This document shows, piece by piece, positions 378 to 58,359 of a stretch of 64,000 nucleotides of DNA. This DNA is from an uncultured Gammaproteobacteria bacterium (GTDB taxonomy: Bacteria; Patescibacteriota; Microgenomatia; UBA1406; HO2-37-13b), in the NCBI GenBank assembly GCA_964422025.1, contig CAYQYZ010000001.1, positions 13,410 to 77,409 on the forward strand, given 5' to 3'. Numbering within the stretch: position 1 is the stretch's first letter; every line of letters begins with the position of its first letter. The position numbers were made by a program, and so were the translations under genes. A model generated the notes under the pieces. The model searched no databases, was not told where the DNA came from, and was given only the letters and a program-made list of their open reading frames with translations.

Positions 378-406
378 TTGACATTTAGCAAACCCGTTGC
401 TATACT
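378..406 (+). promoter_or_regulatory. sigma70-type promoter upstream of lon
   Basis: TTGACA (378-383), 17-nt spacer, TGcTATACT with -10 at 401-406; 11 nt before ATG 418. Confidence 0.7.
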
Positions 407-2923: not shown

Positions 2924-2952
2924 TTGACTTCTTTATGTGGATTGTCTAGAAT
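2924..2952 (+). promoter_or_regulatory. sigma70-type promoter upstream of the DsbA-like gene
   Basis: TTGACT (2924-2929), 17-nt spacer, TAGAAT (2947-2952); 9 nt before ATG 2962. Confidence 0.65.
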
Positions 2953-3954: not shown

Positions 3955-4917
3955 AACTTTCACGTCCACCAATGTTCTTTTCAACACATTCCCCTTAATT
4001 AATATCCAGAATAACCACGCAGTAAACACGGTCTCAACAAATCCAAACAAAATAAACACGGGTTGTATAAGTAATACTATCAATAATGCCACCAACACTG
4101 GCACAATATAGCTGTATTGTTCCAGTAGTACCAACAGTTGTACTTGAATCTGTGGATGCATAGCCGCAATAATCGGTTCAATGTCTACATCGCCATTATC
4201 ATATACGTATACGTTTTCATACGGGATCGTGCTTGGATCAATTCCATACAATCTTCCTGTTTTCTCATCGACCATATTTTTTCCAACTTCTCGTAATACA
4301 CCCGCAGCAGCTTCCTTTTTTTGCTGATATCCGAGTCCATTATATTGTGGCCCTAACTTTCGAATAACTTGCGTGTTAATTTGTTTATTCACGAGTGGGA
4401 TCAATGGTTTACTCACAAATGTAATAAGCGTGTCATTTACTAATGTATTCGAGGCTATTCGATCACGTGTTTGTACAAAACTAATAAGCGAGAAAAATAT
4501 CATCAAATATATAAATGAAGTTCGCAAGGCAGGCATAAAAATTTCAGAAGGTATAAATTTTACAAATAATGCGGCCCGTGAAGTACTTGATGTGTACATG
4601 TATTGTTGCATCCACCAAAAAACCAGAGAGCTTAATACTGTTCCAATAATAGAGTGGCTTACCGCAAAGAATGTAAGTGCAAAAACGACTGTCGACACCG
4701 CATACAATTTCCCCATTTTATTTTCATTTGCCAGACCTAATAGAAATAATGTAAGAGAATCTAAATAGACTAAGAATATGGATATAAAAAATAGAATAAT
4801 ATTTATCTTCACCGCTCCACTTATGAGCGCGTACAAATTGATTCCTCCTAAGGTAAATCCCAATGCTATGGAAAGAAGTACCAAAATCCCCGCAAGAATG
4901 TTTTTTGTACTCAACAT
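3937..4917 (-). CDS. hypothetical polytopic membrane protein
   Basis: 326 aa. Several N-terminal TM helices, a soluble middle segment and two C-terminal TM helices. No motif recognised. Confidence 0.6.
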   Translation of the reverse strand: MLSTKNILAGILVLLSIALGFTLGGINLYALISGAVKINIILFFISIFLVYLDSLTLFLLGLANENKMGKLYAVSTVVFALTFFAVSHSIIGTVLSSLVFWWMQQYMYTSSTSRAALFVKFIPSEIFMPALRTSFIYLMIFFSLISFVQTRDRIASNTLVNDTLITFVSKPLIPLVNKQINTQVIRKLGPQYNGLGYQQKKEAAAGVLREVGKNMVDEKTGRLYGIDPSTIPYENVYVYDNGDVDIEPIIAAMHPQIQVQLLVLLEQYSYIVPVLVALLIVLLIQPVFILFGFVETVFTAWLFWILIKGNVLKRTLVDVKVEKVSL

Positions 4918-4959: not shown

Positions 4960-4968
4960 TGATATACT
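4960..4968 (+). promoter_or_regulatory. extended -10 element
   Basis: TGaTATACT, 7 nt before ATG 4976. Confidence 0.45.
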
Positions 4969-6408: not shown

Positions 6409-6423
6409 TGATAATATACATCT
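6409..6423 (+). promoter_or_regulatory. extended -10 element 6 nt upstream of the start codon (leaderless-type)
   Basis: TGaTAATAT-acatct-ATG(6424). Confidence 0.5.
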
Positions 6424-7356: not shown

Positions 7357-7409
7357 CTATCAAACCTGACCTCAAAATATCTTAGAACTTGACGGGAGGG
7401 TGTTTTTTT

Positions 7410-7871
7410 ATGGCCAATGCAAATGTAGTAACTCAAAAAGGATATAATAAAGTACTTGCGGAAATTGAAGAGCTTAGAAAAGTTAAGCGACCAATTGCGG
7501 TGGCACGACTTAAAAAAGCCCGTGAAATGGGCGATTTGTCGGAAAATAGTGAATATGTAGCTGCTAAGGAGGATTTGTCGTTCTTGGATGGACGTGCGCA
7601 AGAGCTTGAGTATTTGCTTCGTCAGGTAAAAGTAATTCCCGATTCATCGGATAACTCAATTATTGAGGTGGGGAGTGTTGTGGATGTTCTTGTAAATGGT
7701 AACAAAGACACGATCTCAATTGTCGGAGAGCTTGAAGCCAATATTGCAGAAAAAAAATTATCCAATAATTCTCCCATCGGCCAGGCACTTCTGGGAAAGA
7801 AAAAAGGGGATGTGGTTACGGTCACTGTCCCAGCAGGCGAAATAGAATACACGATTTTGAAAATTTCTTAA
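7410..7871 (+). CDS. greA: transcription elongation factor GreA
   Basis: MANANVVTQKGYNKVLAEIEELR... coiled-coil N-terminal domain and a C-terminal FKBP-like domain. ATG 7410 is preferred over track TTG 7389 because of the SD GGGAGGG 9 nt upstream. Confidence 0.9.
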   Translation: MANANVVTQKGYNKVLAEIEELRKVKRPIAVARLKKAREMGDLSENSEYVAAKEDLSFLDGRAQELEYLLRQVKVIPDSSDNSIIEVGSVVDVLVNGNKDTISIVGELEANIAEKKLSNNSPIGQALLGKKKGDVVTVTVPAGEIEYTILKIS

Positions 7872-7885
7872 CTATCTGCTATAAT
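7857..7885 (+). promoter_or_regulatory. sigma70-type promoter overlapping the greA 3' end; drives the leader or small RNA upstream of 8016
   Basis: TTGAAA (7857-7862), 17-nt spacer, TGcTATAAT (-10 at 7880-7885). Confidence 0.6.
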
Positions 7886-7941
7886 ACCTTCTATGTTACT
7901 AATGAATGTTATTAATTTAACAAATAAGTCAAAAAAACGCA

Positions 7942-7964
7942 TCCTTCTTGCGAGGGGCTTTTTT
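7942..7964 (+). terminator. weak terminator-like hairpin plus T6
   Basis: TCCTTC-ttgc-GAGGGG (4 Watson-Crick plus 2 G.U pairs), then C and T6, followed directly by ATG-TAA (7965-7970). Confidence 0.4.
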
Positions 7965-7991
7965 ATGTAACATAAAACATTACAACAACGC

Positions 7992-8015
7992 ACCCCTCGA
8001 AAGAGGGGTTTTTTT
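7992..8015 (+). terminator. intrinsic terminator-like hairpin (GAAA tetraloop) plus T-run, abutting ATG 8016
   Basis: ACCCCTC-GAAA-GAGGGGT 7-bp stem followed by the T-run 8009-8015. The 3' arm GAGGGG doubles as the only SD-like element for ATG 8016. Confidence 0.7.
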
Positions 8016-9080
8016 ATGGCACAAACAGAAATAACATCAACAGGGAAAATCGGCATGGATTTAGAAAGATCGGATGGTCGAGCATATTTAACAATGTCTG
8101 AGATAATTACTAATCCTGAAGATTTAATGTCTGCTTATACAGATCTTTCCAAGCAATCCGAACAGTATAGGCGAAGACGCAAAGTACTCCGTGCACGTTG
8201 TTCTAGAGAGGTAGTTTTTGCAATGACGGAGCAAGACCCTAATGCATTTGAAGTGGCGATTCCATTACATCTCTTTGAAGAGGAAACGGATGACTTCTTA
8301 ATTGTTATGGGAGCCAATGTTCATTCTTCACCAGTTCCTGAATGGGAAGCTGTGTATCAGTACTGGGAGAGTCGAAATGGGCAATCTCGAACACCTGTAC
8401 AAATTGTGGAACAATTACCTACACAGTTCCAACTTGTACAAACCTTTAATGAAGGCGATGTTCCTGAACTTCGAAAATTATGGAATGCATTTGGATGGTC
8501 TAAAGAAGGACTAATGCAGATGCAACAGAATGTGGGAAATGGAATTGCTTTTAGCGGAGTACGTGATACGGAAACAAGTAAAATAGTTTCTGCTACAATG
8601 GGTGAAATACTTTCCGTCGCAGGAGTTAACTTAGCCGAAACTACAGAGTATAGTACCGATCCAAATTACCGAAAGCTTGGCTTATGTACCGCGAGCGTGA
8701 TAGGACTGTCGGCTCAGCTACTGAATGAGCTTGAAGGTCTAGGGGGAATCCCTTTGATATTCGCTGAATTAAATATGTCTTCTCGTTCAGATATTGTTGC
8801 TCGTCATGCAGGTTTTACTATTCCGGGGGTTGAAGGAAAATCTGGACTTACTGCGCCACATCAGGTACTTCGAGCAAACGTTGCGGTTCTTGATGGAATG
8901 TCAGCAAATAGTTTAAACTGGCGAGACTTGGGATCAGATAGAAACGCCTACAGAGCGGCTTTCGCATATCCGCATAGATATACGAGAAACTTTGTTGTTG
9001 GAACTTTGACAGCGAAATTTATTAGAATGAATTATTCAGGTTTAGAACGTGCTCGAATTTTGGCACGCTATGAGGATTAA
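8016..9080 (+). CDS. hypothetical protein with C-terminal GNAT (acetyltransferase)-like region
   Basis: 354 aa. The segment ...AETTEYSTDPNYRKLGLCTASVIGLSAQLL... resembles the GNAT acetyl-CoA binding motif A (V-x-P-x-YR-x-x-G-L-...). The N-terminal ~150 aa is unrecognised. Arg-rich (about 26 R vs 9 K by hand count). Confidence 0.5.
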   Translation: MAQTEITSTGKIGMDLERSDGRAYLTMSEIITNPEDLMSAYTDLSKQSEQYRRRRKVLRARCSREVVFAMTEQDPNAFEVAIPLHLFEEETDDFLIVMGANVHSSPVPEWEAVYQYWESRNGQSRTPVQIVEQLPTQFQLVQTFNEGDVPELRKLWNAFGWSKEGLMQMQQNVGNGIAFSGVRDTETSKIVSATMGEILSVAGVNLAETTEYSTDPNYRKLGLCTASVIGLSAQLLNELEGLGGIPLIFAELNMSSRSDIVARHAGFTIPGVEGKSGLTAPHQVLRANVAVLDGMSANSLNWRDLGSDRNAYRAAFAYPHRYTRNFVVGTLTAKFIRMNYSGLERARILARYED

Positions 9081-9082
9081 TT

Positions 9083-10099
9083 ATGTATATACGATATTCA
9101 AAAACTAGTCTTGTATATAACCATCAGTATGAAGTCTTTAATGGACAGCGGGAAGTTCATCAAGATCAACCTCAACGGCTAGAAAAATTATTGGAGTCAC
9201 TCGCACAAGGCGGGTATGATTATGGGGAAACTGAATGTGTTGTTCCACGTCATGTTCTTTCAGTTATACATGATAATGATTATCTAACTTTTCTGCAATG
9301 CGCATCAGAACAAGTAAAGTCAGGTGACATATTATTTCCTTCAATATTTACCCATAAAAAACCGGAATCTAAAAATATTCTAGCTCAATTGGGCTATTAT
9401 AGCAACGATATGTATACGCCTTTACATCATAATTCGTATAATGCAGCTCTTGCTTCAGCATCGGTTGCATATGATTGCGCCCAACTGCTTTTAGCAAATC
9501 AATCGAAATTTTCTTATGCAGTTTGTCGACCTTCAGGTCATCATGCGGGTAAGCGTACAATGAGCGGATACTGTTTTCTAAATAACGCAGCGGTTGCTGC
9601 TCAAACGCTTGTGCAAAGTGGCAAAGTTGCAATTCTTGACGTAGATTTTCATCATGGAAATGGGACACAGGAAATATTTTATGATCGATCCGATGTTTTG
9701 ACTGTTTCAATTCACGCAGATCCTCAGGTTAAATTTCCATTTTATGCTGGGTTTGCACAAGAAAGCGGCGTAAATAAAGGAGAAGAATTCAATCTCAATA
9801 TTCCCCTTCCACTGGGAACCAATAATGATCAATATCACATAGCCTTGCAAAACGCGTTGCGGAATATTAAAGCATTCAATCCGTCATACTTAGTTCTTTC
9901 TTTAGGATTTGACACGCACGAAGCAGATCCTATTGGCGGTTTTTTGCTTACCACTGACTATTACACAAAAATGGCTCTCACAATTAAAGCAATGGAATAT
10001 CCGATCGTTGTTGTTCAAGAAGGTGGATACAAAGTGGAAACGCTGGGTTCTAATATTTTGGCATTTATGGACGGATTTACACATTCTAGTGCGGTATAA
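9083..10099 (+). CDS. histone deacetylase-family amidohydrolase (AcuC / acetylpolyamine amidohydrolase-like)
   Basis: RPSGHHA catalytic His pair, metal-binding motif DVDFHHGNGTQ, and late QEGGY motif. 338 aa. Begins 2 nt after the previous stop. Confidence 0.85.
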   Translation: MYIRYSKTSLVYNHQYEVFNGQREVHQDQPQRLEKLLESLAQGGYDYGETECVVPRHVLSVIHDNDYLTFLQCASEQVKSGDILFPSIFTHKKPESKNILAQLGYYSNDMYTPLHHNSYNAALASASVAYDCAQLLLANQSKFSYAVCRPSGHHAGKRTMSGYCFLNNAAVAAQTLVQSGKVAILDVDFHHGNGTQEIFYDRSDVLTVSIHADPQVKFPFYAGFAQESGVNKGEEFNLNIPLPLGTNNDQYHIALQNALRNIKAFNPSYLVLSLGFDTHEADPIGGFLLTTDYYTKMALTIKAMEYPIVVVQEGGYKVETLGSNILAFMDGFTHSSAV

Positions 10100-10106
10100 T
10101 ACTCCT
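10095..10106 (+). promoter_or_regulatory. -10 hexamer 6 nt upstream of the lysK start (leaderless-type)
   Basis: TATAAT(10095-10100)-actcct-ATG(10107). Confidence 0.5.
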
Positions 10107-11684
10107 ATGTTCTGGGCTGATCAATTAATACAAAATATCGACAAAAATAAAAAGCATCGGGTTGACGATCAATCGACTCCTTCGGGCGAACCACATGTCG
10201 GATCTCTTCGAGCTATTGCCATCCATGGCCTCATTTACGAGGCTATGAAAAAAGCTGGATATGAGGTGGATTTTACGTATGTTTTCGATGACATAGACCC
10301 GATGGACGGATTACCTACCTACCTTTCCGAAGGGGAGTTTGGTCAACACATGGGAAAACCATTAACATCCATTCCTGCTCCCGACGGTGTCTCTGCAAGC
10401 TTTGCCGCTCAATATTCAAACAGATACCACACTGCTCTAAAAAACCTTGGGTTTAATCCGACAATTAAATCGACAACGCAAATGTATAAAGCGGGAGAAT
10501 TTGATCCTTATATTAAATTTGCTCTCGATAACGTTGAGAAAGTTCGAGAAATCTATCTTACCGTTGCCAAACAACAAAAGCCTACAAACTGGTACCCGTT
10601 CCAAGTAATCTGTCCTAATTGTGGGAAAATTGGATCAAGTTTAGTAACCGATTGGGATGGGGAACAGGTAACATATGAATGTAAACCTGATCTTGTAAAA
10701 TGGTCGGTTGGTTGTGGGCATTCTGGTAAGATTTCACCATTTGGAGGAACTGGAAAACTAATGTGGAAAGTTGAATGGCCCGCAAGCTGGGCTGCGTTGG
10801 GAGTAACGGTGGAAGGCTCGGGTAAAGATCATATGTCTGCCGGGGGAAGCCATGATATAGGAGAACGCATTGCCCCTGAAATTTTTAAGTATCAGGCCCC
10901 CTTTGCATTTATGACCGAATTCTTCCTAGTTGGTGGCGCTAAAATGTCGTCTTCAAAGGGAATCGGATTTACTGCAATTGACATGTTCTCAATTATGCCA
11001 GCGGAATTGGTGAAGTTTTTGATTGTTCGAACACCATACAAACGCGCAATTAATTTTGATCTGACTGCTTCCGCAACAATTCCTGATTTGTTTGATGAAT
11101 ACGATCGCTGTGCAAAAGAATTTTTTAAATCAGGAACAGAAACTGACATGGGAAGAATGTATGAGGCGACTCAAATTGGGGAAGCAGACGTCTCTGGAGA
11201 AGTCTTGCATTTACCTCGTTTCCGCCAAGTTGCTACGCTCATACAAATGCCATCGGTCGATGTGCAGAAGTTTTTTGAAACTGAAAAGGGGAGTGCGCTC
11301 ACACAACCAGAGCAAGAGGTGCTCCAGGAGCGTGTTCGCTTTGCAAAAATATGGCTGGAACGCTATGCTGATGAAAAAGATATCTTTACCATTTCAAAAA
11401 CGCTTCCATCCCGCGCGTCGGAGCTTGATAGCGACCAAAAAGAGTTTCTTAGCAGAGTAGCGTCCGATCTGCTAAATGAGCAGTATTCTGATGGTGAAGC
11501 CTTGCAGCAAGCTGTATTCGAACTTTCCAAGACTGTTGGAATAGCCCCCAAAAAAGCATTCCAGGCAATCTACTTAGTTCTTATAAACAAGGATCACGGA
11601 CCCAAAGCCGGGTGGCTTTTGCAGGACGAATTAAAACGAAATAAAGACTTCCTAATAACGCGATTTACGAGTGATATCGCCTAA
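10107..11684 (+). CDS. lysK: lysyl-tRNA synthetase, class I
   Basis: Class I signatures PSGEPHVGSLR (HIGH-type) and KMSSSKG (KMSKS-type), plus the CPNCGK zinc knuckle. Start is at MFWADQL. The track ORF's upstream 66 codons overlap the deacetylase gene. Confidence 0.85.
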   Translation: MFWADQLIQNIDKNKKHRVDDQSTPSGEPHVGSLRAIAIHGLIYEAMKKAGYEVDFTYVFDDIDPMDGLPTYLSEGEFGQHMGKPLTSIPAPDGVSASFAAQYSNRYHTALKNLGFNPTIKSTTQMYKAGEFDPYIKFALDNVEKVREIYLTVAKQQKPTNWYPFQVICPNCGKIGSSLVTDWDGEQVTYECKPDLVKWSVGCGHSGKISPFGGTGKLMWKVEWPASWAALGVTVEGSGKDHMSAGGSHDIGERIAPEIFKYQAPFAFMTEFFLVGGAKMSSSKGIGFTAIDMFSIMPAELVKFLIVRTPYKRAINFDLTASATIPDLFDEYDRCAKEFFKSGTETDMGRMYEATQIGEADVSGEVLHLPRFRQVATLIQMPSVDVQKFFETEKGSALTQPEQEVLQERVRFAKIWLERYADEKDIFTISKTLPSRASELDSDQKEFLSRVASDLLNEQYSDGEALQQAVFELSKTVGIAPKKAFQAIYLVLINKDHGPKAGWLLQDELKRNKDFLITRFTSDIA

Positions 11685-11693
11685 GCGGTGGTG

Positions 11694-11705
11694 TATAATT
11701 ACCCC
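11694..11705 (+). promoter_or_regulatory. -10 hexamer 6 nt upstream of the serS start (leaderless-type)
   Basis: TATAAT(11694-11699)-tacccc-ATG(11706). Confidence 0.5.
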
Positions 11706-17880: not shown

Positions 17881-18858
17881 CTACAGAGAAGTGGTAAAAA
17901 ATCGCCGAACAACGTCCTCTATACTTGGTTCCTCAACAGTAAATTCATCAACATCGAATTTATCTAGAATATGTGCCGCGACATGGTTCGTTTTTTCGCG
18001 AGCTACCGTTAATTCAATTTTTGAAGTACTTACTTTTTTGACATCGCCAAACTTAATAAAAGAGTCTTTATCAATAGGAGCGTTAAACGTAAATGTTAAT
18101 ATTTTATGTGGAGAATATTTTTGGACGAGTGTTGCGAGTTGTCCGTCGTACATTATTTTTCCCTGATCAATGAAAATAATGCGTTTACATAGTTTTTTTA
18201 CATCTTCCATGTAGTGGCTTGTTAATAAAATTGTTGCTTCATATTTTGCATTATAGTCTTTAATAAAGTCTCTCAAATTCTGCTGCATAACTACATCAAG
18301 CCCAATAGTTGGTTCGTCTAAAAACAATATCTCAGGGGAATGAATCAACTGATTAATAAGTTCACATTTCATACGTTGGCCGAGCGAGAGTTTACGGACT
18401 TGAATATGCAAAATATCGACAACATCAAGTAATTCAGTGAGCTCTTTAATAATCGGATTGAATCGAGCAGCTTCGACTTCGTATATCTCTTTGTTAAGCA
18501 AAAAAGATTCGTATGCCGGTAAGTCCATCCATAATTGATTTTTTTGTCCCATGACTAAGGAAATCTTTTTTAAGAATTCAGTTTTTCTGTCAAAGGGTTT
18601 ATATCCGGCAACAGATACTTTGCCCGATGTAGGATATATAAGTCCCGATAAGCATTTGAGAGTAGTTGTTTTCCCTGCACCGTTTGGGCCAATGAATCCA
18701 ATTAGCTCTCCCTTTTCAATTGAAAACGAAACGTCATTAACAGCATATTTTGTTATATATTCTCTGTTAAAGAGAGATTTGAAAGACCCAGCAATTCCGG
18801 GTTCTTTTTTATATGAAGAGAATGTTTTGGTTAGGTGTTCTACGGTAATGAGGGACAT
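17881..18858 (-). CDS. ABC transporter ATP-binding protein
   Basis: Walker A GPNGAGKTT, signature LSLGQRM, Walker B ILFLDEP. Confidence 0.9.
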   Translation of the reverse strand: MSLITVEHLTKTFSSYKKEPGIAGSFKSLFNREYITKYAVNDVSFSIEKGELIGFIGPNGAGKTTTLKCLSGLIYPTSGKVSVAGYKPFDRKTEFLKKISLVMGQKNQLWMDLPAYESFLLNKEIYEVEAARFNPIIKELTELLDVVDILHIQVRKLSLGQRMKCELINQLIHSPEILFLDEPTIGLDVVMQQNLRDFIKDYNAKYEATILLTSHYMEDVKKLCKRIIFIDQGKIMYDGQLATLVQKYSPHKILTFTFNAPIDKDSFIKFGDVKKVSTSKIELTVAREKTNHVAAHILDKFDVDEFTVEEPSIEDVVRRFFTTSL

Positions 18859-18873
18859 TTATCCATTCTATCA
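18859..18873 (-). promoter_or_regulatory. extended -10 element 6 nt upstream of the ABC ATPase start (leaderless-type)
   Basis: Minus strand reads TGaTAGAAT-ggataa-ATG (start at 18858). Confidence 0.5.
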
Positions 18874-20122: not shown

Positions 20123-20151
20123 ATTTTAAGTGTACCAGGTTGTGGGCCGGA

Positions 20152-22937: not shown

Positions 22938-22946
22938 ATTTTAGCA
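22938..22946 (-). promoter_or_regulatory. extended -10 element for ftsH
   Basis: Minus strand reads TGcTAAAAT, 9 nt before ATG (22928). Confidence 0.45.
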
Positions 22947-25738: not shown

Positions 25739-25747
25739 ATTATATCA
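25739..25747 (-). promoter_or_regulatory. extended -10 element
   Basis: Minus strand reads TGaTATAAT, 8 nt before ATG (25730). Confidence 0.45.
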
Positions 25748-25853: not shown

Positions 25854-26456
25854 TTACTTTCGGGCAGTAAATGAGGCCGGAGCGCGAATGATTTTTCTGC
25901 GCATAATAATCACTAAAGAGAGAGTTGTATTTGCAACAATTAAGAAAAGAGGGTACAGGGCTGTAATAATCGAAAAATTGGTTAATGCAGAAACAGAAAG
26001 AACGTGCTTAAAAGCACTTATCGTATAGTTTGAGAGCGTTTCTTGATATGGTTTGTAATATGATTTCCTCAGCGTAATAAATGTAGCAAGTACATCAGTA
26101 ATAGTAATAAGTATTGCAGCATATAAGGCAGTATCAGCTATAATCCAGCTTACCAATGCAATAAGAGCACCGCACAAGGCTATCCAATCAATAAGGACAA
26201 TATTTTTCTCGCCGTATTTGAGTGATAGTAGAAATATACCAAAGCAGAGTGCGCTAGAAAATCCCATTACCCACGATCCTGGGCCGGCACCATCACTTAA
26301 TTGAGCAAAGTAACTAATACCTGTAATAAGAGACCACACAAACCAGGTAAACGAGTGAGGTCGAGTCTTTTTAAGCAAAATATCTCGAATGTAGGGAATA
26401 ATAGCGACAAATCCTAGAACTACTGCGATGCTTCCGAGTAGTGATTGTATAGTCAT
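25854..26456 (-). CDS. 7-TM membrane protein, PQ-loop/SWEET-like (paralog 1 of 3)
   Basis: 200 aa. Two internal 3-TM repeats, each with an IPY/TLRK..KPY segment after its first helix, and a conserved GAGPG motif. Confidence 0.6.
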   Translation of the reverse strand: MTIQSLLGSIAVVLGFVAIIPYIRDILLKKTRPHSFTWFVWSLITGISYFAQLSDGAGPGSWVMGFSSALCFGIFLLSLKYGEKNIVLIDWIALCGALIALVSWIIADTALYAAILITITDVLATFITLRKSYYKPYQETLSNYTISAFKHVLSVSALTNFSIITALYPLFLIVANTTLSLVIIMRRKIIRAPASFTARK

Positions 26457-26457
26457 A

Positions 26458-27048
26458 TTAGTACCCCTTTGGTTTTAGTATAACTCGTCTGCGGGTAATT
26501 AATATAAATACAAAGCCCACATTTACGAAAGCAAGAATAAATGGATTTAGAGCTGTGATGACAGACACATTTTCTAATGCAAATAGCGAAATTACGAATT
26601 GAAAAATGGATGTTAAATACACCATAAGCGATTCTTCATAGGGTTTTTGATATGACTTTCTAATGGTAGGAATAAATCCGAATACATCAGCGATGGTGAC
26701 TAATATAATTGCATAAAGTGGAGTATTTGTAAGTATCCAGCTTGCAATAGCTATTAGTGAAATTCCCAAACAGACATAATCAACACGTGCTATATTTTTC
26801 TCACCCTTTTTGAGTGACAGAATAAAAACTCCAAAAGATACAAGCGTAATGGTTCCCATTACCCAAGCTCCTGGCCCTGCATTATCTGAAACTTGCCCTG
26901 CAAAACTAACCGCAGATGTTAAGCACCACACGAGCCACGAAAATGTATGGGGTTTTGTTGAACCATTCAAAACATCACGGTAGTAAGGGACATATCCTAT
27001 TAGAGCAATCAGAACAGAGAAAGTTCCAAGAATGCTATTCGTGTTCAT
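26458..27048 (-). CDS. 7-TM membrane protein, PQ-loop/SWEET-like (paralog 2 of 3)
   Basis: 196 aa, colinear with its neighbours (VPYYRDVLNGSTKPHTFSW, DNAGPGAWVMG, IRKSYQKPYEE). Confidence 0.6.
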   Translation of the reverse strand: MNTNSILGTFSVLIALIGYVPYYRDVLNGSTKPHTFSWLVWCLTSAVSFAGQVSDNAGPGAWVMGTITLVSFGVFILSLKKGEKNIARVDYVCLGISLIAIASWILTNTPLYAIILVTIADVFGFIPTIRKSYQKPYEESLMVYLTSIFQFVISLFALENVSVITALNPFILAFVNVGFVFILITRRRVILKPKGY

Positions 27049-27641
27049 TTCTTAAATCCTGCAGGAGCAGGAATAACTTTTCTTCGTGCGATAAGCAATA
27101 CATACATTCCCCAGTTAGCAAAAATCAAGAATGTCGGATACAAGGCGGTTGTAAGTGAGAAATTATCTAGCGCAAATAGTGCTAAGATAAATTGGAATCC
27201 TGCGACAGCATACGAAATGGCAGTTTCTTCATACGGCTTGTAAAAAGACTTTCGTGCGGTCGGAATAATTGCAATGCCATCAGTAATGGTAACGAGTATC
27301 GTTGCGTATAATGGTTCATCGGTTAAACTCCACGCAATAAGTGCACACCCGGCTAAAATTAGAGATACATAGTCAATAAGCGCGATTTCTTTTTCTCCTT
27401 TGCGTAAGGAAAGCAAGAAAATGCCGAAACACGCGGCTGCTGCTATGCCCGTTACCCATGCCCCGGGGCCGGCGTTATCAGCAATTTGTGCAAAAAAGCC
27501 AATTCCGGAAACAAGTGACCATATTAACCACGTAAATGAATGGGGTTTAGTTTTGTTTTTGAGAACATCTAAGTAATAGGGGACGTAATTGAAGGTGACT
27601 AGCACCACTGAAATTATTCCAAAAATAATATTTGTACTCAT
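27045..27641 (-). CDS. 7-TM membrane protein, PQ-loop/SWEET-like (paralog 3 of 3)
   Basis: Start taken at MSTNIIFG (27641) because the track ORF's upstream codons run into tRNA-Pro. Colinear with paralogs 1 and 2. Confidence 0.6.
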   Translation of the reverse strand: MSTNIIFGIISVVLVTFNYVPYYLDVLKNKTKPHSFTWLIWSLVSGIGFFAQIADNAGPGAWVTGIAAAACFGIFLLSLRKGEKEIALIDYVSLILAGCALIAWSLTDEPLYATILVTITDGIAIIPTARKSFYKPYEETAISYAVAGFQFILALFALDNFSLTTALYPTFLIFANWGMYVLLIARRKVIPAPAGFKK

Positions 27642-27645
27642 TATG

Positions 27646-27716
27646 TCGGGGTGGGGAGAGTCGAACTCCCGCCTCACGGTCCCAAACCGCGAATTCTACC
27701 GCTATACTACACCCCG
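27646..27716 (-). tRNA. tRNA-Pro (anticodon UGG)
   Basis: 71 nt: acceptor CGGGGTG/CACCCCG (C1:G72, as in bacterial tRNA-Pro), anticodon arm CGCGG-TTTGGGA-CCGTG, T arm GGGAG-TTCGACT-CTCCC. The D stem is weak. CCA not encoded. Confidence 0.8.
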
Positions 27717-27763: not shown

Positions 27764-27775
27764 TACAATAGGCCT
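27764..27775 (+). promoter_or_regulatory. -10 hexamer 6 nt upstream of the start (leaderless-type)
   Basis: TACAAT(27764-27769)-aggcct-ATG(27776). Confidence 0.45.
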
Positions 27776-28435: not shown

Positions 28436-30300
28436 TATTGCGAAAAAAGAAATTTCATCACACAGGAAAAAAACGTAAGCGAACCAGAATTTTTTGGTCT
28501 CTTGTGTTATTTGTACTTTTCCTAACGTTCTTCGTTGTTCTTCCGCTGAAAAATATTAATACCAAAGGTCGAGCTGTTGTTGCAAGTGCTCGAGTGATGA
28601 AAGATTCATTAAAGGGTGACGATATGAATAAAGTGCAGACTGACATGAAAGATGTCCGAACAAAATTTGATTCTTTCCAAAAAGATGCCAAAAAAATATA
28701 TTGGATGCGATTTATACCGGTAGCCGGATGGTATGTTTCAGACTTTAAACATGGTGTAGAAGCCGGCGAGAGCCTTATTAATGCGGGTCAAAAGGGAATA
28801 ACCGCTATAGCTCCGTATGCAGATTTGATTGGATTCAAAAAGGGAGGAGCCGGTTTTGCAGATCGTTCAGCTGATGATCGTATTCAAACCGCCGTATTAA
28901 CACTTGATAAAATTGTTCCCCAAGTTGATGCAATTGCTGTCGACATTGATGCTGCCCAAAAAGAGATTGATCAAATTGATCCTGGTAAATATCCGGGAAA
29001 ATATGGTGCTAAAATTGCAGGCTATCAAGAGCAATTTGATAGCGTCGCATCACTGTTTGTCGATGCAAAGCCGTTTATTAAAAAAGTTCCTAATTTACTC
29101 GGAGCACATGGAGAGCGAACATATATTATAGTTTTCCAAAACGACAAAGAACTTCGTCCAACAGGTGGATTCTTAACTGCGTATGCCATTTTTAAAATGA
29201 AAAATGGAAAAATGTCAGCGCAGCGTTCAGAAGATATTTATACTCTCGATGCCTCCATTTCAAGTCATCCAAAAGCTCCGGCACCAATTTTAGCCTATCA
29301 CAAAGGAGTATCTCAGTTAAATATTCGCGACAGTAATTTAAGTCCTGATTATTATGAATCTATGCAGGAATTTGAAAAACTGTATGCAAAAAGTAGTCAG
29401 AAAGTAGCCTACGACGGAATCATTGCAGTCGACACAAAGGTGCTCGTAGACATGTTACGTGTTCTTGGCGACACGGAAGCCGGCGGACATACGTTCTCAG
29501 CAAAACCTGATGATCGATGCGATTGTCCACAAGTAATTTACGAATTATTGAATGACATTGATCGTCCTGTAAATTATGTTAAGAACGATCGAAAGGGAAT
29601 TCTTGGGCAGCTTCTATATGCAATCATGCAGAAGGCGCTCGGATCATCTCCTTCTCAATATTGGGGTCAACTTACCCAAGATGGAATTGCGAATTTAGAA
29701 GAAAAGCATATTCTAATGTATCTTAAAGATGAAGAGGAACAGAAGGCGGCTGAAGCCATTAATTTTGCTGGTCGAATGCAACAAACAAAAGGGGACTTCT
29801 TACATATTAGCGATACTAACTTTGCCGGAGCAAAATCTAATTTATTCGTACAACACAATGTCACCTCCGACACCACTATCGATTCTAATGGAACCGTTAC
29901 TCGGAAACTCACTATTCGCTACAAGAATCCTCATCGAGCTTCAGATTGTAATTTAGAGCGAGGAGGACTCTGCTTAAATGCGCCGCTTCGAAATTGGCTC
30001 CGTATATATGTTCCGGAAGGGAGCAAATTGGTAAGCTTTAAGGGATCTCAAACTAAAACACAAACATATGATGAACTTGGTAAAACCGTTTTTGAAGGAT
30101 TCATGACGGTAAATCCAATGGGATCAGCTTTAGTAACAGTGGAGTATGAATTGCCCAATAAAGTAAAAAATCAAAAGGATTATACCCTGTACATTCAAAA
30201 GCAGCCAGGAACGGTTGGGCACGAATACACCGTGAATGTAAATGAAAAACTGCGTTCAAACACTCCCCTTGTCAAAGACTACCAACTTACGCTAAAATGA
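28432..30300 (+). CDS. DUF4012 domain membrane-anchored protein
   Basis: N-terminal TM helix and the characteristic LLGAHGERTYIIVFQNDKELRPTGGFLTAYA motif. Typical neighbour of sugar transferases. Confidence 0.75.
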   Translation: MILRKKKFHHTGKKRKRTRIFWSLVLFVLFLTFFVVLPLKNINTKGRAVVASARVMKDSLKGDDMNKVQTDMKDVRTKFDSFQKDAKKIYWMRFIPVAGWYVSDFKHGVEAGESLINAGQKGITAIAPYADLIGFKKGGAGFADRSADDRIQTAVLTLDKIVPQVDAIAVDIDAAQKEIDQIDPGKYPGKYGAKIAGYQEQFDSVASLFVDAKPFIKKVPNLLGAHGERTYIIVFQNDKELRPTGGFLTAYAIFKMKNGKMSAQRSEDIYTLDASISSHPKAPAPILAYHKGVSQLNIRDSNLSPDYYESMQEFEKLYAKSSQKVAYDGIIAVDTKVLVDMLRVLGDTEAGGHTFSAKPDDRCDCPQVIYELLNDIDRPVNYVKNDRKGILGQLLYAIMQKALGSSPSQYWGQLTQDGIANLEEKHILMYLKDEEEQKAAEAINFAGRMQQTKGDFLHISDTNFAGAKSNLFVQHNVTSDTTIDSNGTVTRKLTIRYKNPHRASDCNLERGGLCLNAPLRNWLRIYVPEGSKLVSFKGSQTKTQTYDELGKTVFEGFMTVNPMGSALVTVEYELPNKVKNQKDYTLYIQKQPGTVGHEYTVNVNEKLRSNTPLVKDYQLTLK

Positions 30301-33035: not shown

Positions 33036-34132
33036 ACGTTTTCGGTATAAATCTGCTGCGTTTTTTGAGTCATATTTTCAAACGAAAATCGTTTTGTATC
33101 GAGCTTAGGCGTAGTGAGTTTTTGATGAGCTGCCTGCTCTAAGGCTTTTCGTATAGACTCTTGGCTATACGGGTCGAATCGGAGCGTGCGCTCATGTAAA
33201 ATTTCATCGAAAACAGAAATTTTGGAGGCTAATATGGGGCACCCAAAATACTGGGCTTCTACTACTGGCAGTCCAAACCCTTCGGTAAGTGAGGGCTGCA
33301 CTAATGCATGTGCTTTTTTGAATAACGCTATTTTTTCTTGTTGTGAAATGTTAAATAACTGCAAAACTCGTTCCGAAATACCAAGATTATTAATAAGTTG
33401 TGTAATTGATGCAGAAAAAAAGTCTTTTGGTCCAACTACTATTAATTTCATTGTGGTCTTTGTTTGTGCAAAAGCCTTGAGCATTTTCTCAACGTTTTTA
33501 TGAGGGTATGAATTTCCAATATATATAAAATAGCGGGAATTTTTTAGAAAACTGTTTGTCGATGTAAATATCGACTCGTCAGGCTTCATTTTTTGAAGTT
33601 CAAAATCAATACCTTCATGTGTTACTACAATTTTGTTTTTATATTGATGTCCAAAATAATGAATAATAGCGCTTCGTACTGCTTCAGATGGCACAATTAC
33701 TTGCGTGCTTTTTTTGATTCCGCGTGCAAGAACATGCTGATAAACAGTATGTTTTACGTGAAATAAAGGGGTTGGAAGCGTAGTTGCTTGACCAGTTTTA
33801 AATAGTAAAGGAGTTAAATCATGAATAGTAATTACAAACGGTCGTAGGTAAAGATAAGGAAAACTGAAATAGGTAAAGTGCATTAAATCAAGTTTATCTT
33901 CATACAGAGTTCGTAAAAAATGAGTCTGTTCAGCGACTGAATGCCATCTGAAAGGTGCGGGTCGCTTAATCAGGTGTGCTTTGTTCGGAATAGTATCAAG
34001 ATCTTGTGGATACGCATATACATAATATTCAACAGTACCCGAGGAGGTTTGCAAATAGTGCAGCAAATTTCGAATATATACGCCAACTCCTGTTTGATTA
34101 ATTAATCGTGCATCAATGCCAATGCGTTTCAT
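33032..34132 (-). CDS. glycosyltransferase, GT4 family
   Basis: TEGFGLPVVEAQYFGCPIL motif. Confidence 0.8.
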   Translation of the reverse strand: MKRIGIDARLINQTGVGVYIRNLLHYLQTSSGTVEYYVYAYPQDLDTIPNKAHLIKRPAPFRWHSVAEQTHFLRTLYEDKLDLMHFTYFSFPYLYLRPFVITIHDLTPLLFKTGQATTLPTPLFHVKHTVYQHVLARGIKKSTQVIVPSEAVRSAIIHYFGHQYKNKIVVTHEGIDFELQKMKPDESIFTSTNSFLKNSRYFIYIGNSYPHKNVEKMLKAFAQTKTTMKLIVVGPKDFFSASITQLINNLGISERVLQLFNISQQEKIALFKKAHALVQPSLTEGFGLPVVEAQYFGCPILASKISVFDEILHERTLRFDPYSQESIRKALEQAAHQKLTTPKLDTKRFSFENMTQKTQQIYTENV

Positions 34133-42959: not shown

Positions 42960-42971
42960 TAATTTAGTATA
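42960..42971 (-). promoter_or_regulatory. -10 hexamer 6 nt upstream of the GT2 start (leaderless-type)
   Basis: Minus strand reads TATACT-aaatta-ATG (start at 42959). Confidence 0.5.
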
Positions 42972-42974
42972 ACA

Positions 42975-44000: not shown

Positions 44001-44009
44001 TGATATACT
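44001..44009 (+). promoter_or_regulatory. extended -10 element for glyQS
   Basis: TGaTATACT, 7 nt before ATG 44017. Confidence 0.45.
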
Positions 44010-45876: not shown

Positions 45877-45885
45877 TGCTATAAT
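45877..45885 (+). promoter_or_regulatory. extended -10 element
   Basis: TGcTATAAT, 9 nt before ATG 45895. Confidence 0.45.
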
Positions 45886-46227: not shown

Positions 46228-46256
46228 TTGACATCGCTCTAAATTGCGCCTAAAAT
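46228..46256 (+). promoter_or_regulatory. sigma70-type promoter of the dcw cluster (mraZ)
   Basis: TTGACA (46228-46233), 17-nt spacer, TAAAAT (46251-46256); 8 nt before ATG 46265. Confidence 0.7.
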
Positions 46257-52844: not shown

Positions 52845-54191
52845 ATGACAACCGAAGATGCATTTATCGTAACCGGAGGAAAGCCAATTAGTGGAACTAT
52901 TTCAGTTTCAGGAGCAAAAAATGTCGCCTTAAAGGTTGTCATTGCTGCGTTAATGCTTCAAAAGCCCGTTACGCTTAAAAACATACCTAATATTAAAGAT
53001 ATTGAAGAGCTTTTAACGCTCATAGGTGACCTTGGTGGTAAATGGGAATTCATTTCAAAAAACACACTTTTGGTCGATGGAACATCGCTTTCACAAAACA
53101 AAGTTGCGCTGTTATATGGATCCAAAATTCGTGTTTCATTTATGATGTTCGCCCCACTCTTATATCGGCTTGGCACAGCGCTTATTCCCAATCCCGGAGG
53201 GTGTCGTATTGGAGCACGATCAATTGATCGCACCATCGATATGATGAAACAGTTTGGTGTAGAGGTTCAGTACAATTCGAAAACCGGATATTACACCGCT
53301 ACTCGAACAAAAGATCAATTTACTGCAATTCATTACCGTTTTGATAAAAAAACACATACCGGAACCGAACTCGCACTTCTTTTTGCAGCCTGTGCGAATG
53401 GAACGACTATTCTTGATAATTGCGCGCTTGAACCTGAAATTGACGACTTAATCGCATTCTTAAATATGAACGGCGCAAAAATTAAGCGAGCGGAAGATTC
53501 AATTGTTATTACTGGTGTAAATGAGCTTAGTAATCGCAGTAGCAAAGGCGAATTCACTATTATAGGCGATCGCAATGAGGCTGTTACCTATGCAGTTCTT
53601 GCGATGGCGACAAAGGGAGATATAACGGTTCTTGGTGCCGATGCAACTCATTTGGCTCCATTCGTTGAAAAAGTTCGCGCAGCTGGTGGAGGGATTGAAG
53701 AGAAAAAGAATTCGATAAGATTCTATTACAAAAAAGATCTCCAACATACATATGTAGTTACATTGCCTCATCCGGGCTTTATGACTGACTGGCAAGCTCC
53801 ATGGGCCGTACTTATGACACAAGCTCAAGGGAAATCGACTTTGCATGAAACCGTTTTTGAAAATCGATTCGGATACGTGAAAGAGCTCAAAAAAATGGGT
53901 GCAAACATTTCATTCTTTCAACCGGAATTGGAAGATCCACACCATATATACCAATTTAATGGAAACAAAAATGGAAAATACAAAAACCAAGCAGTCGAAA
54001 TAATTGGAAACACCCCGCTTCACAATGCGGTTCTTAAAGTTACCGACATGCGAGCAGGTGCTAGCTTGATTATTGCCGCACTTATTGCTCCCGGAGAATC
54101 AATAATTGATGGAGCTACTATTATTGACCGTGGTTACGAAGATATCGTAGAAAAATTATCAGATCTTGGAGCTTCTATTCGTCGGGTATAA
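52845..54191 (+). CDS. murA: UDP-N-acetylglucosamine 1-carboxyvinyltransferase
   Basis: ISVSGAKN, the loop containing the PNPGGCRIGARSID segment (Cys at the usual MurA active-site position), and MRAGASLIIAAL. Confidence 0.9.
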   Translation: MTTEDAFIVTGGKPISGTISVSGAKNVALKVVIAALMLQKPVTLKNIPNIKDIEELLTLIGDLGGKWEFISKNTLLVDGTSLSQNKVALLYGSKIRVSFMMFAPLLYRLGTALIPNPGGCRIGARSIDRTIDMMKQFGVEVQYNSKTGYYTATRTKDQFTAIHYRFDKKTHTGTELALLFAACANGTTILDNCALEPEIDDLIAFLNMNGAKIKRAEDSIVITGVNELSNRSSKGEFTIIGDRNEAVTYAVLAMATKGDITVLGADATHLAPFVEKVRAAGGGIEEKKNSIRFYYKKDLQHTYVVTLPHPGFMTDWQAPWAVLMTQAQGKSTLHETVFENRFGYVKELKKMGANISFFQPELEDPHHIYQFNGNKNGKYKNQAVEIIGNTPLHNAVLKVTDMRAGASLIIAALIAPGESIIDGATIIDRGYEDIVEKLSDLGASIRRV

Positions 54192-54198
54192 CACTACT
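54187..54198 (+). promoter_or_regulatory. weak -10-like hexamer 6 nt upstream of the start
   Basis: TATAAC-actact-ATG(54199). It lacks the conserved final T. Confidence 0.3.
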
Positions 54199-58347: not shown

Positions 58348-58359
58348 TATAATTAGAGC
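58348..58359 (+). promoter_or_regulatory. -10 hexamer 6 nt upstream of the start (leaderless-type)
   Basis: TATAAT(58348-58353)-tagagc-ATG(58360). Confidence 0.5.

Follow-up and report, generated by a model that had tools for sequence, protein, structure and literature searches.

Introduction

Genes expressed without a leader are marked elsewhere by a TANNNT hexamer about 12 nt upstream of the start codon (PMC3160421). In group C of GeneMarkS-2 the box lies 6-8 nt from the start, a layout assigned to 90% of Actinobacteria and 97% of Deinococcus-Thermus (PMC6028130), and an experimentally validated -10 motif is present in about 30% of Deinococcus-Thermus open reading frames (ORFs) (PMC12340547). 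Here we describe a comparable layout in a stretch of 64,000 nucleotides of contig CAYQYZ010000001.1 (positions 13,410 to 77,409, forward strand; hereafter the window), in which such hexamers stand directly before the start codons of many genes, lysK and serS among them. We consider it probable, at roughly 0.8, that these hexamers are -10 elements which put the transcription start on or just before the ATG, so that the mRNAs would be leaderless or carry leaders of 1-3 nt.

The leaderless mechanism is already established in Actinobacteria and Deinococcus-Thermus; what is new is the lineage, Patescibacteria. We did not find this phylum covered in the surveys of leaderless genes (PMC3160421, PMC6028130, PMC3898074, PMC12340547), and our literature search returned nothing linking leaderless expression to the Candidate Phyla Radiation (CPR), Patescibacteria, Saccharibacteria, Microgenomates or Parcubacteria, although this search is incomplete and an earlier report is possible. 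For TM7x there are only indirect start sites, derived from RNA-seq (PMC12641261, Table 1). The anti-Shine-Dalgarno sequence (anti-SD) is known to have been lost in part of the Parcubacteria (PMC9297842, Tsurumaki et al. 2022).

Methods

The window has a GC content of 39% and tightly packed genes. It holds three tRNAs and no rRNA, and an Rfam scan of the window at gathering thresholds matched the three tRNAs only. Pfam annotation identifies lon, nrdR, greA, a class I lysK, serS, secA, eno, ftsH, sua5-tsaE and tsaD, and additionally a glycosyltransferase cluster and a dcw/mur cluster.

The SerS of the window is 92% identical to that of contig CAYPSA010000001.1 from a metagenome-assembled genome (MAG), a record wrongly titled 'uncultured Gammaproteobacteria', 90% to that of a 'Candidatus Roizmanbacteria' MAG, 56-69% to those of Woesebacteria, Gottesmanbacteria and Microgenomates MAGs, and 43-54% to those of MAGs labelled Paceibacteria, Nomurabacteria and Saccharibacteria. 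On this series of identities we assign the source to a Microgenomates-type member of the Patescibacteria (CPR). Many MAG records (L001, L003-L005, L007 and others of our loci) are Patescibacteria by SerS and gene order, yet are titled 'uncultured Gammaproteobacteria bacterium' or 'uncultured Candidatus Saccharibacteria'; taxonomy taken from such titles is unreliable.

The comparison set consists of the window and 80 serS-centred loci, with 953 genes in total. Microgenomates-like relatives were counted as a separate set from the other Patescibacteria (57 loci), and two loci, L001 and L002, are close relatives with 75-83% DNA identity to the window. Genes were called blind to the motif, as ORFs of at least 120 codons from the 5'-most ATG with a greedy non-overlapping choice. 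For the shuffle test, the 40 nt upstream of each auto-called gene (56 genes in the window) were compared with 1000 dinucleotide shuffles. Internal in-frame ATGs served as a further control, but since neither TAA nor TAG can stand at an in-frame spacer, its counts come out too low at such spacers, and shuffles and other spacers were relied on instead. We write N6 for a spacer of six nucleotides between hexamer and start codon, and likewise for other lengths.

Results

Upstream of the auto-called window genes, TANNNT-N6-ATG occurs 8 times, compared with 1.6±1.2 in shuffled sequences (maximum 6; z = 5.2). The Microgenomates-like relatives present 35 cases against 10.2±3.1 (z = 8.0), and the other Patescibacteria 145 against 27.9±4.9 (z = 23.8), with the excess seen in 48 of these 57 loci. 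The enrichment of N6 over dinucleotide-shuffled upstream regions, which the original prediction had named as its deciding test, holds in the window and in the 80 related loci. A count that makes no use of annotation was also obtained: in the window the hexamer at N6 opens a first-ATG ORF of at least 100 aa in 8 cases, compared with about 1.7 for the remaining spacers in the range 0-30. With the motif as the starting point, an ATG opening an ORF of at least 100 codons stands at N6 behind 111 of 2233 TGnTAnnnT sites, whereas other spacers give about 7. No peak is present at the in-frame spacers N3, N9 and N12, nor at spacers 20-30, the range of the archaeal TATA box. The identical pipeline finds N6 in 1 of 40 genes of E. 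coli and in 0 of 31 genes of the B. anthracis plasmid pXO1 (33% GC).

Across the window and the 80 loci, the N6 peak is present in 14-32% of genes in nearly every class of upstream gap. No N6 excess is found for genes overlapping their neighbour (3.6%, equal to background), nor, in the Microgenomates-like set, for co-directional genes separated by over 100 nt (2.3%, 1 of 43). At N6 the start codon is nearly always ATG, with 91 ATG compared with 4 GTG and 1 TTG. A generic scan for sigma-70 -35/-10 pairs was rejected as evidence, as its 62 sites compare with 56±8 in shuffles and are uninformative; it is the distance to the start codon that carries the signal.

In a hand-curated table of the 61 protein genes of the window, strict TANNNT is found at N6 in 10 genes and at N7-N9 in 7, while lon stands at N11. 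Thirty-five of the 61 either overlap a co-directional upstream gene or follow it within 8 nt, 4 have leaders resembling a Shine-Dalgarno sequence (SD) and 5 are unclassified. A box at N6-N9 precedes 15 (58%) of the 26 genes without a tightly abutting upstream gene. The box-at-start layout concerns about 17-19 of the 61 genes, or about a third.

All 17 sites cited in the original prediction, ten at N6 and seven at N7-N9, are present in the window sequence (Table 1). Of the ten N6 boxes, described there as of the TANNNT type, eight are strictly so, since TATAAA before 4917 and TATAAC before 54199 do not end in T; two strict N6 cases had been overlooked, at eno (20122, TGgTACACT) and at 34132. 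The assertion that the spacing is exactly 6 nt is right insofar as N6 is the mode, but N7-N9 are nearly as frequent in the window's lineage. That the genes are first in their transcription units was an assumption: several sit 4-26 nt behind a co-directional neighbour (recO 4 nt, lysK and 54199 7 nt each, serS 21 nt, 58360 26 nt), and there is some circularity in the notion, given that many boxes fall within the end of the gene upstream.

The N6 class has the character of a promoter at positions that the search did not select. Outside the selected T, A and T, we find T at -17 in 65-71%, T at -15 in 70-76% and G at -14 in 58-72% of cases, with T, A and A as inner bases, so that the consensus reads TRTGnTATAAT; in the larger set a weak TTG is also visible at -35. 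The TGn extension is present in 11 of 19 window sites, and those without it tend toward a -35 element (TTGACA at mraZ, TTGACT at 2962). The distribution of TGnTAnnnT before first ATGs has a sharp left edge, with 0, 0 and 1 cases at N3-N5 compared with 91 at N6; the Microgenomates-like set has 0, 0 and 0 cases at N3-N5 and 19, 14, 12 and 11 at N6-N9. This edge is expected because a closer promoter would start transcription inside the codon.

At the predicted start site, the sixth and seventh bases after the box are a pyrimidine and then A irrespective of how far away the ATG stands. For the N6 class, 81% of ATGs have a pyrimidine directly before them, versus 48% of internal ATGs (P about 1e-12). 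Of the 52 cases with N8 or N9, 33 have A as the seventh base after the box (P = 5e-4; 57% in N8 and 76% in N9) and 37 have a pyrimidine as the sixth. At N7 the seventh base is mostly T, and initiation therefore probably slips to the A of the ATG. We read pyrimidine-then-A at the sixth and seventh base as a start-site signature at the canonical distance of 7 nt, a distance of 7 bp from the box being the centre across 49 bacteria (PMC12641261). The proposal that N6 spacing would place the start on the A of the ATG is thus supported by the TG and T-17 positions, by the left edge, by the pyrimidine/A signature and by conservation.

TAnnnT boxes are also found 8-11 nt upstream of the mature 5' ends of tRNAs in many loci, which would therefore be made as precursors with 5' leaders of merely 1-4 nt. 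In the window, tRNA-Pro (27716) and tRNA-Met (25825) have such boxes upstream, for example agTATAATtaagtaaa abutting tRNA-Pro.

Conservation and protein evidence bear on individual sites. Box and spacer length are kept in the relatives at lysK, serS, the ABC ATPase gene at 18858, 4917, lon and 2962, while the spacer or the upstream flank varies. At lysK, gcggTATAATactcctATG is conserved in L001 and L002 despite a different upstream gene there, and the alignment to the relatives resumes at 10090, at the box. The segment missing from the relatives comprises a 354-aa ORF and the HDAC-like gene (7855-10090); in L001 and L002 lysK stands directly after greA. At 18858, TTTTGTGnTAnAAT and the 6-nt spacer length are kept in L001 and L002 with a different spacer sequence, and at 4917 TGCTATAAATA and its distance to the ATG are conserved in both. 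The entire lon promoter, with its -35 and its leader, is conserved in both relatives as well, and the 2962 promoter, including the -35, is conserved in L001 and becomes N8 in L002.

Pfam profiles begin at residues 1-3 of lysK, serS, recO and eno: tRNA-synt_1f aligns residues 2-355 of the lysK product to profile positions 2-357, Seryl_tRNA_N aligns from residue 1 of SerS, and residues 1-78 of the recO product match positions 1-79 of RecO_N. In public gene calls for an independent assembly, lysK, serS and secA have the same starts. The motif had been said to pick the conserved N-terminus over longer ORFs, and for lysK and serS both Pfam and the public calls agree with this choice. The third such case, 27776, accords with the data: the longer ORF, which starts at 27632, runs across tRNA-Pro on the opposite strand and has its Pfam domain from residue 62 onward, 13 residues after 27776. 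The Glycos_transf_2 domain begins at residue 12 of a longer ORF, which is residue 5 when counted from 42959.

Among 79 serS orthologues with a protein-anchored ATG (MLD/MLS), 52 present TANNNT at N6-N9, and 4 of the 27 others have an SD. The serS orthologues thus show the switching from leaderless to SD-led expression described by Zheng et al. (PMC3160421).

At two of the longer spacers, the sixth and seventh bases after the box are t and a, predicting a 2-nt leader for mraZ and a 3-nt leader for 2962. The MraZ product begins with MAFLG, which we take to be typical of the family. The promoters of 4976 and 4917 stand back to back in a divergent spacer of 58 nt. Predicted leaderless GTG starts such as that of recO are rare, yet present in other loci.

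Table 1 Positions of the predicted promoter boxes and of related features in the window, in order of coordinate.
Gene or start	Element	Position	Strand	Spacer	Remark
lon, ATG 418	full promoter TTGACA-N17-TGcTATACT	378..406	+	N11	predicted short leader without SD
ATG 2962 (DsbA-like)	full promoter TTGACT-N17-TAGAAT	2924..2952	+	N9	
ATG 4917	TGcTATAAA	4924..4932	-	N6	no final T
ATG 4976 (histidine phosphatase)	TGaTATACT	4960..4968	+	N7	
ATG 6424 (271-aa ORF)	extended -10 TGaTAATAT	6409..6417	+	N6	
greA, ATG 7410	SD-like GGGAGGG	7394..7400	+		contrast case, in conserved leader
lysK, ATG 10107	-10 TATAAT	10095..10100	+	N6	TAA stop of upstream HDAC-like gene (10097-10099) inside box
lysK (class I lysyl-tRNA synthetase)	coding region, predicted leaderless	10107..11684	+		525-aa product; public gene call identical
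serS, ATG 11706	-10 TATAAT	11694..11699	+	N6	kept in L001; N7 in L002 (1-nt insertion)
ATG 18858 (ABC ATPase)	extended -10 ttTGTGaTAGAAT	18865..18873	-	N6	
eno, ATG 20122	TGgTACACT	20129..20137	-	N6	Enolase_N begins at residue 3
ftsH, ATG 22928	TGcTAAAAT	22938..22946	-	N9	sixth/seventh bases after box c, a
ATG 25730 (DsbA-like)	TGaTATAAT	25739..25747	-	N8	directly past tRNA-Met 3' end
ATG 27776 (Bac_transf sugar transferase)	-10 TACAAT	27764..27769	+	N6	alternative reading TGtTATACA, N8
recO, GTG 30305	-10 TAAAAT	30293..30298	+	N6	-35-like TTGTCA 18 nt upstream
ATG 42959 (family 2 glycosyltransferase)	extended -10 TGtTATACT	42966..42974	-	N6	
ATG 44017 (class II aminoacyl-tRNA synthetase, HGTP anticodon domain)	TGaTATACT	44001..44009	+	N7	
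ATG 45895 (89-aa ORF)	TGcTATAAT	45877..45885	+	N9	
mraZ, ATG 46265	full promoter TTGACA-N17-TAAAAT	46228..46256	+	N8	Pfam MraZ match
ATG 54199	TATAAC	54187..54192	+	N6	weak: no final T, no TG, 7 nt past murA stop
ATG 58360 (447-aa ORF, dcw cluster)	-10 TATAAT	58348..58353	+	N6	

The genes with an N6 box were also claimed to lack an SD, and this is borne out: GGAG or GAGG is present in 0-3% of genes in the N6 and N7-9 classes. The companion claim, that genes with leaders do have one, is true of greA (GGGAGGG) and a few others but fails as a rule, since SD 4-mers occur in 5-10% of box-less genes versus 7.7% at internal ATGs, which is the background. For E. coli and pXO1 the same pipeline detects SD 4-mers in 32-35% of genes. 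The Microgenomates-like set has a slight excess of G-rich 4-mers, SD-like leaders are seen at greA, dagK and a few other window genes, and the conserved GGGAGGG of greA suggests that the window's lineage still uses SD occasionally. Among all loci, the 3' end of 16S rRNA was found only in L080 (1-302), where it reads ...GGAUUAUAAUUUUU (consensus ...GGAUCACCUCCUUU) and contains no anti-SD CCUCC.

Many -10 boxes fall within the final codons of the preceding gene or within its stop codon. Co-directional pairs that carry an N6 box show an excess of gaps of 4, 7, 9 and 12 nt, in small numbers, and the upstream stop codons overlap the box in preferred registers, for example with TAA as bases 3-5 of TATAAT between the HDAC-like gene and lysK.

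A further group of starts lies directly behind tRNA genes. The ATG (27641) of a 198-aa ORF follows the 3' end of tRNA-Pro (27645) by 3 nt on the minus strand (27639-27716), leaving no room for a promoter or SD. This start is supported by three tandem paralogues, which align from Met1. Ten of 57 tRNA genes in the window and 60 loci have a same-strand ATG of a long ORF within 0-8 nt, and the tRNA-then-ATG arrangement recurs in L021, L024, L028, L033, L040, L042, L046 and L052. By analogy with the 'tRNA punctuation' of mitochondria, this suggests tRNA-mRNA co-transcripts in which tRNA 3' processing may leave a leaderless or near-leaderless mRNA. The three tandem paralogues (25854-27641, minus strand) are about 200 aa long and 53% identical to one another, with conserved PH..F.W and GPG.WV; they have no Pfam match and look like membrane proteins.

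The best full promoter of the first 20 kb, TTGAAA-N17-TGcTATAAT, lies just past the greA stop in the segment 7857-8018 (plus strand). Its ATG at 7893, at N7, opens merely a 25-codon ORF, which is followed by two terminator-like hairpins, the second abutting ATG 8016. AGAGGGG before ATG 8016 was considered as an SD and rejected, being the 3' arm of a terminator-like hairpin. The segment has an RNA fold z of -4.2, with an alternative long-range pairing between two G/C-rich arms, and no Rfam match; either a leaderless leader peptide coupled to an attenuator or a small RNA may be encoded here.

Discussion

In the mechanism that we propose, the boxes would be the -10 elements of housekeeping promoters of the sigma-70/SigA type, mostly of the extended form TRTGnTAtaaT with a weak or absent -35. 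The housekeeping holoenzyme would bind the extended -10, melt the DNA and start at the seventh base after the box. At N6 this base is the A of the ATG, and the RNA would begin with pppAUG, with no leader and no SD; at N8-N9 the first base transcribed would be an A that precedes the ATG by 2-3 nt. Ribosomes would begin translation at this AUG, at or close to the 5' end of the RNA, with no pairing of SD and anti-SD, and the roughly 35 window genes that overlap or abut a neighbour (within 8 nt) are probably translated by coupling, through termination-reinitiation.

Three other explanations have to be weighed against this mechanism. The boxes may be promoters of mRNAs with short leaders, either because the transcript starts 1-5 nt ahead of the ATG or because translation truly begins at a codon further downstream. 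We hold this to be unlikely, even though N7-N9 are about as common as N6 in the window's lineage, the A at the seventh position of the N8 and N9 classes predicts leaders of 2-3 nt and lon stands at N11. In the N6 class the seventh base is the A of the ATG itself, with the preceding pyrimidine in 81%, and both Pfam profiles and alignments of orthologues anchor the N-terminus at these codons for lysK, serS, recO and eno; leaders of up to 5 nt, moreover, count as leaderless by convention and are too short for an SD. It is more doubtful still that the box is a translational signal, either a non-SD ribosome-binding element or an unstructured A/T-rich one of the Bacteroidetes type, carried on longer polycistronic transcripts that start upstream. 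T-17, T-15, G-14 and the weak TTG at -35 are contacts of RNA polymerase and not of the ribosome, the pyrimidine/A pair is fixed at the sixth and seventh base even where the ATG comes 2-3 nt later, and the identical box stands 8-11 nt before tRNA genes. Such a signal would account for the frequency of the motif before genes 0-39 nt behind a co-directional gene, and with SD at background and at least one related genome without an anti-SD in its 16S rRNA some other initiation signal is needed; overlapping genes, which need a ribosome site too, nevertheless lack the motif.

Finally, the pattern might be a by-product of AT-rich intergenic composition, of TAA and TAG stop codons near starts and of biased start choice. 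The genome has 39% GC, an in-frame TAA or TAG at -12 can bound an ORF and begin a TANNNT at once, and stop codons do overlap the box in short gaps. We nevertheless give this explanation hardly any credence: the dinucleotide shuffles never attain the observed count, no peak appears at the other in-frame spacers N3, N9 and N12, and AT-rich pXO1 yields 0 of 31 with the identical pipeline. About 50% of the boxes have T as their third base, and most are therefore not stop codons. The starts, for their part, were taken as the 5'-most ATG with the motif ignored, and public calls concur for lysK, serS and secA.

Several points weigh against the leaderless mechanism itself. The motif, its spacing, its promoter features and its conservation are direct observations; the position of the start site, like the mode of translation and ribosome loading, is deduced from sequence. 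The N6 peak is equal or stronger for genes 12-39 nt behind a co-directional gene (32%); many promoters would then have to lie within coding regions or at their ends, and a translational signal would fit this pattern too. Two of the ten N6 boxes (4917 and 54199) have no T at the last position, and the eno box is conserved in neither L001 nor L002, so that the eno site is uncertain. The related loci are serS neighbourhoods throughout and not whole genomes, and the gene calls, made from the 5'-most ATG, are crude; the intended positive control, plasmid MP1 of Deinococcus radiodurans, was uninformative because this caller fails at 63% GC.

Whether leaderless extended -10 starts and tight gene coupling together are the main mode of translation start in Patescibacteria, with SD nearly dispensable, is in our judgement a matter of even odds; near-leaderless mRNAs from tRNA 3' processing may even be accepted. 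If true, this would explain how Parcubacteria without a 16S anti-SD still initiate. For a huge and mostly uncultivated phylum, the pattern provides a specific rule, open to testing, for placing gene starts and promoters. A leaderless model in gene finders improves start calls such as those of lysK, serS and 27776, and for genetic tools in Patescibacteria a TGnTATAAT placed 6 nt before the ATG should suffice for expression.

The closest known system is that of the TA-led genes of Actinobacteria and Deinococcus-Thermus (PMC3160421, PMC6028130, PMC3898074, PMC12340547). As there, the first T lies about 12 nt upstream with a spacer of 6-8 nt, no SD is present, 20-40% of genes or operons are affected, and a single gene, here serS, alternates between leaderless and SD-led across genomes. 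Those high-GC phyla have a bare TAnnnT, whereas the genomes studied here, at 33-45% GC, present a full TATAAT with a strong TRTGn, and many of their boxes overlap the upstream gene, in its final codons or its stop codon. Group C genomes also use SD for internal genes, whereas the remaining genes here show almost no SD enrichment.

The sequence of the promoter, TRTGnTATAAT with a weak -35, resembles the extended -10 of low-GC Gram-positives, in which Lactococcus has a TA-like signal with a strong TG peak (PMC3160421) and the start site lies 7 nt downstream (PMC12641261). The extended -10 promoters of Firmicutes, in contrast, mostly drive leadered mRNAs with strong SDs, as on pXO1 (SD in 32%, N6 in 0 of 31). 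Archaeal leaderless expression (group D) is similar in that leaderless units are the majority of transcription units and SD is little used, but promoter type and distance differ, the archaeal TATA box lying about 22-26 nt upstream, where no such peak is found here. Group B (Bacteroidetes) shares the rarity of SD and the A/T-rich sequence upstream of starts. There, however, the motif precedes all genes, internal ones included, and cannot be a promoter, whereas the motif described here has promoter features and is missing before overlapping genes. Finally, L080 resembles the Parcubacteria of PMC9297842 in the loss of the anti-SD, and its group has the sharpest N6 peak and almost no SD. That study reports the rRNA change and offers no alternative initiation mechanism; for Parcubacteria without an anti-SD (PMC9297842), the architecture described here is a candidate initiation route.

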